From Blastocatellia bacterium (GTDB taxonomy: Bacteria > Acidobacteriota > Blastocatellia > RBC074): a DNA stretch of 64,000 bases. The stretch covers positions 18 through 64,017 of the forward strand of contig JBJXFR010000208.1 in the NCBI GenBank assembly GCA_046155785.1. Reading direction: 5' to 3'. Positions within the stretch are counted from its first letter, which is position 1. Each line of letters begins with the position of its first letter. The translations under genes were made by a program, and so were the position numbers. A model generated the notes under the pieces. That model worked only from the letters and a program-made list of their open reading frames with translations, ran no database searches and was not told where the DNA came from. This document shows positions 29,032 to 31,540 of this stretch, piece by piece.

Positions 29032-29628
29032 ATGAAAGAAGCTCGAAGATCATTTTTACTGGAACCGGCAGACGCGCCACTCACCGCCGCACAAGCTTTT
29101 GTGCGGCACGCGCGCTTTCGTTTAAGCCAGGATTATCCTGTCAAAATTTCCGGAGCGTTGGCGGAACTCACAGACGCGCAACTGTGGTGGCGTCCGAACG
29201 AAGCCAGCAACAGCATCGGCAATTTGATTTTGCATCTGTGCGGAAACGTCCGGCAGTGGATGATTGCCGGAGTCGGCGGCGCAACTGATACCCGCGACCG
29301 CAACCACGAATTCGTGGAGCGTCGTCAAATCGGCAAAGACGAATTGCTGATCTTGCTGAAAACAACGCTGGCCGAAGTTGACGCCGCGCTGGAAAAGCTG
29401 GAACAGGAACTGATTGCTGGCTCTGACGCTCCGCTGCAACGACAAATCACGCCGCAAGGCTTTGCTCAAACCGTGCTCGATTCGGTCTTTCACGTTGTCG
29501 AACATTTCAGCTATCACACTGGGCAAATCGTCTTCATCGCCAAGCTGCTGGCGGGCGAACGCATTCGGTTTTATGACGACAGGCAACTGGATGTGCGAAG
29601 TGAACCGCGCTTGCCTCACCTGCATTGA
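29032..29628 (+). CDS. DinB/DUF1572 family protein
   Basis: RPNEASNSIGNLILHLCGN, RDRNHEF, HVVEHFSYHTGQI. Confidence 0.85.
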   Translation: MKEARRSFLLEPADAPLTAAQAFVRHARFRLSQDYPVKISGALAELTDAQLWWRPNEASNSIGNLILHLCGNVRQWMIAGVGGATDTRDRNHEFVERRQIGKDELLILLKTTLAEVDAALEKLEQELIAGSDAPLQRQITPQGFAQTVLDSVFHVVEHFSYHTGQIVFIAKLLAGERIRFYDDRQLDVRSEPRLPHLH

Positions 29629-29639
29629 TGGCTTACATT
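29611..29639 (+). promoter_or_regulatory. Sigma70-type promoter of the tRNA gene
   Basis: TTGCCT-N17-TACATT followed by a GC-rich discriminator just upstream of the tRNA. Confidence 0.55.
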
Positions 29640-29683
29640 ACGCCGCGTTGCTCCCGTAGCTCAGTGGATAGAGCATCTGCCTT

Positions 29684-30335
29684 CAACATAAATAGGAGCC
29701 TGTACGAAGAATAAGTAATTCGTACAGTGGAGGGTGCTGTATCGGTGAATCTCTAAGGAAGCTTTTACGGCTTCTATGACAACACCGAGGAAACCTTGTG
29801 AAAATCGTTTTGAGGATTTGATGCGATGGGAACAGGAATAAAAACTCATCACACCAAAAACAAAGGCGATTTGGGAGTGGCAAAGGCTTTCTGTGACTTG
29901 GTTGAAAAAGGATATTTAGTTTTATTTCCATCAACCGAGCATGCGCCATTTGATTTGGTAGCTTATGACGGAGAACGTTTCGTCAGGATACAAGTCAAAT
30001 ATCGGAGCGCCGTGAAAGGAGTCCTACAAGTTAATTTAGTTAGCTGGTGGGCAGACAAAAACGGTTCTCACGGAAATCCTGTTGATAAGAGTCAGATAGA
30101 TGTTTTCTGCATTTACTGTCCGGAAACGGATAAGTGTTATTACGTAAAGGCAGAAGACATCAATGTAGGTTTGACTCTTAGAATTGCCGCTCCGAAAAAC
30201 AATCAGCAAAAGAATGTTAAATTTGCTGAAAGTTACACCGGGGTTCCGTAGAGGCCATACGCATCCAGGCTGAAATGCCTAAGATATGGTCCAGACCACA
30301 ACTCATACGAGGCCAGGGAAATCTGGAGTGGTAAG
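29684..30335 (+). mobile_element. Group I self-splicing intron with a homing endonuclease ORF in the P6 extension
   Basis: Exon ends in U and intron ends in G. IGS UAGGAG (29693-98); P2 ctgtacgaa/ttcgtacag; P3 ggtgctgta/tacgcatc; P4 tcggtg/caccga; P6 ggaaacc/ggttcc; P7 ggcca/tggtc; S element AAGATATGGTCC. Confidence 0.92.
29826..30251 (+). CDS. Group I intron-associated PD-(D/E)XK homing endonuclease (I-Ssp6803I-like)
   Basis: TKNKGDLG ... PFDLV ... RIQVK ... DVFCIY pattern resembles I-Ssp6803I (TKLKGDIA/YDLV/KVQVK); AT-rich; lies inside the intron. Confidence 0.88.
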   Translation: MGTGIKTHHTKNKGDLGVAKAFCDLVEKGYLVLFPSTEHAPFDLVAYDGERFVRIQVKYRSAVKGVLQVNLVSWWADKNGSHGNPVDKSQIDVFCIYCPETDKCYYVKAEDINVGLTLRIAAPKNNQQKNVKFAESYTGVP

Positions 30336-30484
30336 CTAAGCAGAGGGTCGCTGGTTCGAGTCCAGCCGGGGGTATCACGAAGACAAGCAGTAACGGGCAT
30401 CAACACAGATGCCCGTTCTGCTTTTTCCATCCATCTTCAAACCATCAAGCAGTTCATCCATTCACTTCTTCACGAAGGGGCGCG

Positions 30485-31540
30485 ATGAGATTCATCATCC
30501 ACGGAGCAGGGGCTTTAGGCAGTCTGGTTGGCGGAATGCTGGCAGAAAGCGGCGCTGAAGTTGTCTTGATTGCACGACCGGCGCATGCCGATGCCGTCAA
30601 TCGTACTGGCTTGCAAATCAAGTCTCCGAAAGGCGACCGCGTGGTGAAGCTGGTAGCCGTGACTTCGCCCAGAGAGATTATCCCGCGCCCGGATGATGTT
30701 GTTTTCCTGACGGTCAAAACATCTCAAACTAAAGCTTCAGTGCAAGCCTTGCGCGAAGTCTTCCTGGAAGCGACGCCTGTGTTCTGTTTGCAGAATGGAA
30801 TCCGAAACGAAGAACTGGCGGCTCGACGTTTTCTGACCGTTTATGGGGCGATGGCCGCGTTGAGCGTGACGTTTCTGTCGCCGGGCATCATCGCGCACAC
30901 GCTGCACAACACGATTTCAGTGGGAAATTACCCGCTCGGATGTGATGAACTTGGCCAGCAAGTCGCGGAACAACTCAGCAAGGCCGGTTTCCGAGCTATG
31001 ACTCATGATTCCATTATGGCCGTAAAATGGAGCAAGTTGATCCTGAATTTGCACAACGCCACGTTTGCCATTCTGGATAACCACTTGCAGCTTGGATTGG
31101 TAACGCCTGCTATCAGCCGGTTTATGGCCGATGTTGAAGGCGAAGCCTTACGTGTGCTGGAAATCGCGGGCATTTCTCTGACCGATGCGAACAATCCGAT
31201 TGAATTCGATAATCGCTTGAACGGGCTTCGCTGTGTGGTCGAAGACCCGCAGAAGACTTACGAAGCCGCTCTTATTCCTTTCGAGCTTCGCACCTATCCG
31301 TCAACCTGGATGGATTTGCGGCAACAACGTGGCGAGACAGAGGCGAGTTATTTCAACGGCGAAATTATTTTGCTTGGCGAAAAATATGGAGTACCGACGC
31401 CGTACAACTCCACGCTGCTTAACATCGTGGAAACCATGGCCGCTGAAAAAACCTTGCCCGGATTGATGACGATTGATGAATTGATGGACCAGGTCGAACA
31501 GCGGCGATTGATGATGTACCACAGCCAGGAAACCCAATAA
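30485..31540 (+). CDS. panE: 2-dehydropantoate 2-reductase (ketopantoate reductase family)
   Basis: GAGALG, VKT, LQNG, KWSKLILN, STWMD, ETEASYFNGEI. Confidence 0.85.
   Translation: MRFIIHGAGALGSLVGGMLAESGAEVVLIARPAHADAVNRTGLQIKSPKGDRVVKLVAVTSPREIIPRPDDVVFLTVKTSQTKASVQALREVFLEATPVFCLQNGIRNEELAARRFLTVYGAMAALSVTFLSPGIIAHTLHNTISVGNYPLGCDELGQQVAEQLSKAGFRAMTHDSIMAVKWSKLILNLHNATFAILDNHLQLGLVTPAISRFMADVEGEALRVLEIAGISLTDANNPIEFDNRLNGLRCVVEDPQKTYEAALIPFELRTYPSTWMDLRQQRGETEASYFNGEIILLGEKYGVPTPYNSTLLNIVETMAAEKTLPGLMTIDELMDQVEQRRLMMYHSQETQ

Follow-up and report, generated by a model that had tools for sequence, protein, structure and literature searches.

The closest described counterpart of the element analysed here is the tRNA-fMet(CAU) intron of Synechocystis PCC 6803, a group I intron in the anticodon loop of a transfer RNA (tRNA) gene that carries the gene of a small nuclease of Pfam family PF11645, I-Ssp6803I (PDB entry 2OST). 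An arrangement of this sort, in which a tRNA gene houses a group I intron encoding a PD-(D/E)XK endonuclease, is known, and its protein side is already recognised in database names. We analysed a stretch of 64,000 nucleotides (nt) from Blastocatellia bacterium (assembly GCA_046155785.1, contig JBJXFR010000208.1, forward strand, positions 18-64,017; hereafter the window), in which a tRNA-Arg(UCU) gene is broken by a 652-nt insert. We consider it very likely that this is a split tRNA-Arg(UCU) gene with a group I ribozyme intron and a homing endonuclease; the insert is a real group I intron and probably a mobile one. Like the Synechocystis intron, it lies in the anticodon loop and encodes a small PF11645 protein. 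It differs in that the interrupted gene is Arg(UCU), the host belongs to another phylum, the nuclease shares about 20% identity with I-Ssp6803I, and its open reading frame (ORF) extends into helix P6 and the joining segment J6/7.

Other bacterial tRNA introns resemble this one in part. Classic tRNA-Leu introns mostly lack an ORF; those of tRNA-Leu(UAA) occupy the same insertion point, 34/35 after a U, in a different tRNA. The introns of Azoarcus tRNA-Ile(CAU) and Agrobacterium tRNA-Arg(CCU) are inserted after anticodon base 36 and contain no ORF, and Arg(CCU) is a different isoacceptor from the one interrupted here. We take the window intron to resemble these two and the Anabaena introns (subgroup IC3) in its small size, its P2, the absence of P5abc and the GAAA loop of P9. 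An earlier account of the window, made from its letters alone (hereafter the sequence-only reading), had called the tRNA site unusual. The position, 34/35 of Arg(UCU), was confirmed, but the site is not unprecedented: Arg-TCT introns have been reported in the Beggiatoaceae Maribeggiatoa BOGUAY and 'Ca. Thiomargarita nelsonii' Bud S10 (Flood et al., PMC4853749, citing MacGregor et al. 2013). According to that paper, the same isoacceptor is broken and was likewise missed by annotation, in hosts that are Gammaproteobacteria, and the interrupted gene of Bud S10 spans 324 bases, which leaves no room for a nuclease gene. Cyanobacterial 'group I introns' of 22-49 nt in tRNA-Arg(ACG), Gly and Lys genes, as given in PMC5733544, were set aside as too short for that class.

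Once introns were permitted, ARAGORN (option -i) called one gene in the 64-kilobase (kb) window, a tRNA-Arg(UCU) at 29650-30374 whose anticodon loop is broken by 652 nt at the junction ...GCCTT / CTAAG.... The two halves, which the sequence-only reading had joined into Arg(UCU) with a break between U34 and C35, were therefore recovered with the same intron length by ARAGORN -i, and a syntenic intron-less orthologue supports the same break. We searched 60 relatives with the 727-nt tRNA-intron stretch as the query, and in 11 of 21 further genomes from the genus the exon halves matched in abutting positions, as an uninterrupted tRNA-Arg(UCU). The 5' exon is 100% identical to the 5' half of intron-less genes from same-genus genomes. 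With the Rfam tRNA model, the intron-less gene of the congener G012 reaches 72.6 bits, and it equals the predicted ligated exons bar a few bases; its alignment pieces stop and restart at query positions 2185 and 2837, which correspond to window positions 29684 and 30336. The locus proved syntenic in 5 of 5 congeners tested with a 5-kb query around the site. U34 as the last base of the 5' exon and G30335 as the last base of the intron, both pointed out before, are invariant across the 38 loci described below, in which the anticodon stem (29676-80/30340-44) covaries across the intron, with two-sided changes at 3 of its 5 pairs and 98.9% of cells paired.

The expectation that standard annotators would miss this tRNA was correct, since default ARAGORN and the Rfam tRNA model both fail on it. 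Default ARAGORN lists 0 tRNAs across the 64-kb window, Rfam at the gathering score returns zero matches of any family over the same length, and Rfam in E-value mode on 29550-30450 returns chance-level matches plus a broken tRNA match of 15.7 bits. Many homologous loci are mislabelled by ARAGORN as Ser-gct, SeC, Leu-caa or Stop because the junction is wrongly placed; their exon sequences show that all are Arg(UCU).

The group I assignment is carried by conservation and covariation of the RNA. One genome per species was scanned with the nuclease profile, giving 80 loci, 38 of the intron type and 42 of another type. Among the 38 intron-type loci, 37 have the same split gene and both junctions, and 1 is truncated at its 5' end. 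They are mostly labelled Acidobacteriota (Pyrinomonadaceae, Blastocatellia), with three other labels that may be binning errors; the host had been described as Acidobacteriota-like, and its nearest relatives are indeed Acidobacteriota assemblies of these two groups. The window and the 37 complete loci were aligned to give 38 sequences, on which the tRNA and helices P1-P10 were drawn from the window sequence, and pair counts were controlled by sliding the 3' partners 1-3 columns and by 500 shuffles. The 79 drawn pairs are 96.8% paired in the 38 loci, compared with 32-44% when the partners are slid. Two-sided changes were found at 37 pairs (slid, 8-18) and in 321 cells (slid, 20-78), and the observed value was reached by 0 of 500 shuffles on four of five measures and by 3 of 500 on the fifth.

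The helices P2, P3, P4, P6, P7 and P8 named by the sequence-only reading can all be drawn, together with P5 and P9 (Table 1), and compensatory changes occur in every drawn P helix from P2 to P9 except the invariant P4 and P6. P7 reads GGCCA/UGGUC in 17 sequences and GACUA/UAGUC in 21, and its covarying pair (1 two-sided) is never mixed. The first P7 pair, G30253-C30291, which we take to be the G-binding site, is G-C in 38 of 38 sequences. P4 is invariant or changes to G-U only; two-sided changes are seen at 4 of 5 pairs of P5 and at 3 of 5 pairs of P9, and the GGAAA of P9 is invariant across the alignment. What had been named the S element (30281-30292) corresponds to J8/7 plus the 3' strand of P7. 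J8/7-P7' agrees with the consensus of the Rfam group I model RF00028, AAGAUAUAGUC, and over J8/7-P7'-J7/9 the intron shares 19 of 21 bases with another intron of the same genome, on contig C129 (RF00028, 57.7 bits), with a z-score of 7.3 against shuffles.

The internal guide at 29693-29698 agrees with the earlier description. P1 (CUU/GAG) is 99.1% paired, each of its positions forming a standard pair in 37-38 of the 38 sequences, and the wobble between U34 and G29696 is conserved (U-G in 37 of 38, U-A in 1). P10 is weaker than that description implied: it is 83.8% paired, with two pairs present in 38 of 38 sequences (one of them including 3 G-U) and a third in only 17 of 35. Taken together, anatomy and covariation make the insert a group I intron, one that lies beyond the reach of the current general Rfam model.

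Two further details are recorded here as observations in their own right. The outermost P5 pair, 29757/29775 (columns 110 and 134), is G-U in 22 sequences, A opposite C in 16 and never Watson-Crick, a pattern that suggests conserved wobble geometry, perhaps at a tertiary contact site. The closest public relative (L003:1331-2125, 96% protein identity) shows a run of N and a duplicated stretch within P8, most likely an assembly artefact.

The nuclease gene is the only long ORF within the intron. It lies between the P6b strands (29798-29800 and 30236-30238) and starts 25 nt past the 5' strand of P6b, while its end overlaps the 3' strands of P6b, P6a and P6, and its UAG stop codon (30249-30251) falls in J6/7 and is invariant in all 38 loci. 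The sequence-only reading had put a 141-amino-acid ORF in the P6 extension with its final codons over the P6 3' strand, and these positions are borne out. Intron ORFs that overlap the core require controlled expression lest folding suffer, according to a review (PMC3984707). The protein matches PF11645 (PDDEXK_5) over profile positions 1-136 of 138 (E 4.3e-41, 140.6 bits, cut-off 26.1), and no NCBIfam model matches it. Its only sequence match in PDB is 2OST, I-Ssp6803I itself, at E 0.37 yet aligned end to end. With an AlphaFold2 model of mean predicted local distance difference test (pLDDT) score 74.8 as the Foldseek query, the top four PDB entries are the four 2OST chains (template-modelling score 0.56-0.63, E 1.7e-7 to 3.6e-5); next come chains of the SPARDA nuclease and Hjc resolvases from archaea. 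The PD-(D/E)XK identity proposed earlier is thus upheld by a full-length family match, with 2OST as the best match in fold. None of 35 sequences departs from D43, Q56 or K58, the counterparts in the alignment of 2OST residues D37, Q50 and K52.

The reading frame is full-length in 32 of the 38 loci and broken in 6. Between the window nuclease and 20 measurable relatives, the ratio of nonsynonymous to synonymous substitution rates (dN/dS) has a median of 0.11 and a range of 0.06-0.18, with synonymous sites near saturation and 10 further pairs undefined; the nuclease is under purifying selection. We found 928 homologous proteins, some of which are named in NCBI records from Pyrinomonadaceae 'group I intron-associated PD-(D/E)XK endonuclease', and the element is common, not rare. 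For I-Ssp6803I the target and the tetramer are experimentally known, as PMC3384342 describes.

The site is polymorphic for presence and absence of the intron. Besides the 11 intron-less genomes, 4 of the 21 other same-genus genomes carry the intron with the PD-(D/E)XK gene (87-91% identical), 1 (G001, L090) has the same intron flanks with a LAGLIDADG gene in P6, and in 5 one exon half or nothing was matched. Both intron-plus and intron-minus alleles, which the sequence-only reading had proposed to look for among relatives, therefore occur within one genus. The LAGLIDADG gene of G001 encodes 147 amino acids and matches PF00961 at 27.2 bits (cut-off 23.1). Outside the genus, G026 (L091) carries the LAGLIDADG form as well, the genes of G001 and G026 encoding 147-148 amino acids; G032 and G033 have ORF-deleted introns with recognisable PD-(D/E)XK scraps, G058 and G039 have ORF-less introns at the Arg(UCU) site, and G057 (L092) has an HNH gene in its Arg(UCU) intron (PF13392, 44.1 bits). 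The LAGLIDADG and HNH genes stop at the same UAG in J6/7 as the PD-(D/E)XK gene. Intact, decaying, lost and replaced nucleases next to empty sites are what a homing cycle leads one to expect, and they are not proof of present mobility. The earlier description of an intact, possibly mobile element gains strength from relatives, whose orthologous site is found with the intron, with an ORF-less form of it or without any. Between congeners, flanking DNA is 71-86% identical and the intron 87-91%; with conserved RNA inside the intron, its higher identity does not testify to recent transfer.

The 42 other loci of the scan (L040-L042, L044-L082) hold non-intron homologues with 53-64% identity, all labelled Actinomycetota save one with a Sphingomonas label. 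In 42 of 42, the free-standing nuclease gene lies beside an intact tRNA-Arg(tct), on the opposite strand and divergent, with 41-199 nt between the 5' end of the tRNA and the first aligned codon of the nuclease; a J8/7-like motif occurs in only 1 of the 42. Within a genus to which one of these genomes belongs, 14 of 81 genomes contain PF11645 (E<=0.001), 5 full-length and 4 truncated or with stops, a distribution that is patchy and decaying. Two types of anticodon arm stand beside the free-standing nucleases, ...GCCTTCTAAGC..., which resembles the acidobacterial target, and ...GGTTTCTACC... in many Mycolicibacterium. Homologues of 43-54% identity also accompany tRNA-Arg(tct) in viruses, on the same strand as the tRNA in 3 of 3 records: 7 nt upstream of it in an uncultured viral contig of IMG/VR (L098), 68 nt downstream in Synechococcus phage Sf-FR1 (L099; 54% identity) and 22 nt downstream in Acinetobacter phage Herod (L100; 43% identity). 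Three more distant family members have 28-32% identity. The one in Streptomyces phage Forrest (L101) is 8 nt away from a tRNA-Asp(gtc), and the one in Haloarcula tailed virus 2 (HATV-2; L103) 197 nt away from a tRNA-Ala(CGC); around that of Salmonella phage SPJ41 (L102) no tRNA is annotated in the stretch. An association with tRNA genes may hold for the whole nuclease family.

I-Ssp6803I recognises a pseudo-palindromic site in the tRNA-fMet gene, according to PMC3384342. By analogy, the target of the window nuclease is likely the uninterrupted anticodon arm of tRNA-Arg(UCU), whose stem forms an inverted repeat around 34/35, and the position of free-standing relatives beside tRNA-Arg(UCU) genes suggests, as indirect support, the same target. 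In a quick tree of 77 proteins (midpoint root, quick search; four rows left out, three with stops and L076), 35 intron proteins of Acidobacteriota fall on one side (support 98) and 41 free-standing proteins on the other (support 93), with one Chloroflexota-labelled intron protein between the two groups; no direction of change is claimed from it. It is possible, though not quite probable, that this branch of PF11645 is a lineage dedicated to tRNA-Arg(UCU), free-standing next to the intact gene on chromosomes of Actinomycetota, free-standing again in the tRNA clusters of phages, and intron-borne at the anticodon in Acidobacteriota, the same loop holding a LAGLIDADG gene, an HNH gene or none in relatives.

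If the split gene works as we propose, tRNA-Arg(UCU) would be transcribed as a precursor of about 727 nt, within which the 652-nt insert would fold as a group I ribozyme of the bacterial tRNA type. P1 would place the U34-G wobble at the 5' splice site, where an external guanosine would attack; P10 would align the 3' exon, G30335 would be exchanged, and the exons would be joined into a normal 75-nt tRNA. The PD-(D/E)XK nuclease made from the P6 loop would cut the uninterrupted anticodon arm of tRNA-Arg(UCU) genes, and if the break were then mended on the template of a copy that holds the intron, the intron would spread by homing. The sequences themselves show the anatomy, the conserved and covarying RNA, the family and fold of the protein with its purifying selection, and the polymorphism of the site; splicing, cleavage, the target site and mobility today are inferred.

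Several observations weigh against this account. RF00028, whose gathering score is 50 bits, finds no match in the whole window at that score, in 29550-30450 at E<=10, or in either intron half alone, so that the Rfam check proposed with the sequence-only reading came out negative. Two natural ORF-less derivatives, L087 (327-nt intron) and L088 (257 nt), likewise give no RF00028 match at E<=1, and the ORF insert is therefore not the sole cause of the failure. Because the window's own sequence served for drawing the helices, the share of cells paired comes out too high, although two-sided changes are free of this bias. That D43, Q56 and K58 are catalytic is presumed from the I-Ssp6803I literature. 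The clean division of the nuclease tree between Acidobacteriota and Actinomycetota fits long vertical descent as well as it fits transfer. A second, divergent tRNA-Arg(tct)-like gene is present on contig C261 of the same genome (C261:212-746, L097), clustered with Arg(acg) and Arg(cct). Finally, no contig from four metatranscriptome runs of three studies joins the exons, although contigs rarely capture tRNAs. The sequence-only reading had named a covariance-model match and a spliced product as the evidence whose joint absence should count against it; RF00028 is silent and the joint does not appear in the RNA contigs, so the rule, taken literally, speaks against the intron. In our view the rule asks too much, as the weight of the case lies with covariation and with the intron-less orthologue.

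The failure of the Rfam group I model, which extends from the window to two ORF-less derivatives, would be explained if the insert were some other nuclease-bearing insertion and its helices had been over-read; we regard this as barely credible. The pseudoknot of P3 and P7 shows perfect covariation (one form in 17 sequences, the other in 21). Conservation takes in the guide, the U-G wobble and the last G of the intron; the J8/7-P7 core equals the RF00028 consensus, and the borders are base-exact against the intron-less allele. RF00028 does respond to the ORF-less Arg(UCU) intron of G058 (L089), a more distant homologue in the same position, with 29.5 bits and E 3e-5, below gathering. The 5' core (29728-29800) aligned locally with three other tRNA introns no better than shuffles did (z-score -0.3 to 0.7). 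Only slightly more plausible, and still very improbable, is that the split gene is a dead tRNA gene, with AGA read by the C261 gene and the insert a decaying relic. The second gene does exist, at least 13 congeners have kept its cluster, which duplicates isoacceptors present elsewhere in the genome, and no spliced product appears in RNA contigs. Against a relic, the exon halves are conserved, and the anticodon stem and the ribozyme helices covary across the 38 loci. Contamination as the source of the C261 gene was rejected on account of the conserved cluster. Because this gene exists, splicing need not be essential, and the intron-bearing gene may not be the sole reader of AGA. As for the RNA itself, 22 sequencing runs contain part of the stretch, none with at least half of the sampled words; the metatranscriptome contigs cover about 29652-30372, with variants, and have zero depth at 29450-29634 and 30375-30485. 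Such coverage is presence in RNA libraries, not splicing, and a weak hint of abundant RNA. A loose contig end at 29684 comes from the intron-less tRNA of a different organism.

A splicing intron that has lost its mobility is a more serious candidate, although an unlikely one. Its nuclease would be kept for some other task, for instance in RNA folding, or would simply be undecayed, and its patchiness would reflect vertical descent with repeated precise loss. The nuclease tree tracks host groups and exon types, the intron occupies a syntenic locus among congeners, 6 of the 38 ORFs are broken, and ORF-deleted forms exist, all of which speak for such a history. What it accommodates poorly is the dN/dS of about 0.11 together with the invariant D...QxK, which indicate that a working nuclease has been retained, and the occurrence of PD-(D/E)XK, LAGLIDADG and HNH genes in the same loop in relatives, which requires repeated invasion. 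We also know of no PD-(D/E)XK maturase. An intron that splices and is mobile remains the reading we prefer.

Table 1. Features of the split tRNA-Arg(UCU) gene and its intron, in window coordinates
Feature	Position	Strand	Evidence
tRNA-Arg(UCU) 5' exon, positions 1-34, last base U34	29650..29683	+	ARAGORN -i
Group I intron, 652 nt	29684..30335	+	ARAGORN -i borders, intron-less G012, covariation
Internal guide: UAG (P10, with 3' exon CUA 30336-30338) and GAG (P1, with 5' exon CUU 29681-29683)	29693..29698	+	Pair counts
P2 hairpin, 9 base pairs	29700..29727	+	Two-sided changes at 6/9 pairs
P3 5' strand, partner 30261-30266	29732..29737	+	Two-sided changes at 4/6 pairs, 100% paired
P4 (29742-47/29783-88) around P5 (29757-62/29770-75), with A-rich J4/5 and J5/4	29742..29788	+	
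P6/P6a/P6b 5' strands, partner 30236-30247	29789..29800	+	P6a/b: two-sided changes at 6/6 pairs
Homing endonuclease ORF, 141 amino acids, PF11645 PD-(D/E)XK, I-Ssp6803I family, in P6 extension	29826..30251	+	
P6b/P6a/P6 3' strands, overlapped by final ORF codons	30236..30247	+	
P7 5' strand GGCCA, partner UGGUC 30287-30291; pseudoknot with P3	30253..30257	+	
P3 3' strand	30261..30266	+	Pair counts
P8 hairpin	30267..30280	+	Outer pairs: two-sided changes at 2/3
J8/7 (AAGAUA) and P7 3' strand	30281..30291	+	
P9a (30302-04/30309-11) and P9 (30313-17/30322-26), GAAA loop	30302..30326	+	
Omega-G, last base of intron	30335..30335	+	G in 38/38 aligned sequences (position 687, first row)
tRNA-Arg(UCU) 3' exon, from C35 to discriminator base A73, with no encoded CCA	30336..30374	+	ARAGORN -i
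Terminator-like hairpin (30392-30417) plus T run, 3' of tRNA	30392..30427	+	Consensus scan only

Further intron-split tRNA genes were found in the same genome. Whole-genome ARAGORN -i gave 19 intron-bearing calls, among which Arg-tct, a 'Leu-caa' on contig C129 and a Leu-taa on contig C357 were accepted; the remaining 16 are probably false. C129:7088-7443 (L002, L085) contains a 280-nt ORF-less group I intron, matched by RF00028 at 57.7 bits. ARAGORN labels its tRNA Leu(caa); the U...G splice rule and the shortness of its variable loop point instead to a CAU tRNA with the break after U33. Only two CAU tRNAs are listed for the genome by default ARAGORN. C357:18907-19696, on the minus strand (L086), is a tRNA-Leu(UAA) split between U34 and A35 by a 703-nt intron with the gene of a 163-amino-acid HNH endonuclease (PF13392, 27.5 bits). 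This intron is missed by Rfam, and default ARAGORN lists no Leu(taa) genome-wide. It shares with the window intron a similar ...GUCCAGAC.ACAA core, but carries an HNH gene.

In the literature, supplementary listings aside, we found no description of a tRNA-Arg(UCU) intron that carries a PD-(D/E)XK gene (the listings could hold one), of tRNA-Arg(UCU) introns in Acidobacteriota, of nuclease turnover among three families at the Arg(UCU) site, or of free-standing relatives beside tRNA-Arg(UCU) genes. The last arrangement has a parallel in F-CphI, reportedly a free-standing endonuclease at the cyanophage psbA intron site, and in the Bonocora-Shub model for the origin of mobile introns. Here too the nearest non-intron relatives of the nuclease are free-standing, beside an intact tRNA-Arg(UCU), a position which suggests that they may cut this target.

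These results bear first on annotation, in that Arg-UCU, Leu-UAA and CAU tRNA genes escape default tools and the genomes of this group seem to lack them. For enzymology, I-Ssp6803I is to our knowledge the only characterised PF11645 homing endonuclease, and the clade described here, at about 20% identity, would add a second specificity that is far from the first and aimed at the anticodon arm of another tRNA. On the evolutionary side, one genus shows the site empty, with a PD-(D/E)XK intron or with a LAGLIDADG intron, and relatives add ORF-less and HNH forms. Other phyla and phages contribute free-standing relatives next to this tRNA gene, and the whole makes a compact system in which to test how mobile introns arise and turn over. 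Should the free-standing enzymes cut at or near 34/35, these loci would form a natural series in which an endonuclease and a pre-existing intron come together as a mobile intron, with all stages experimentally accessible.

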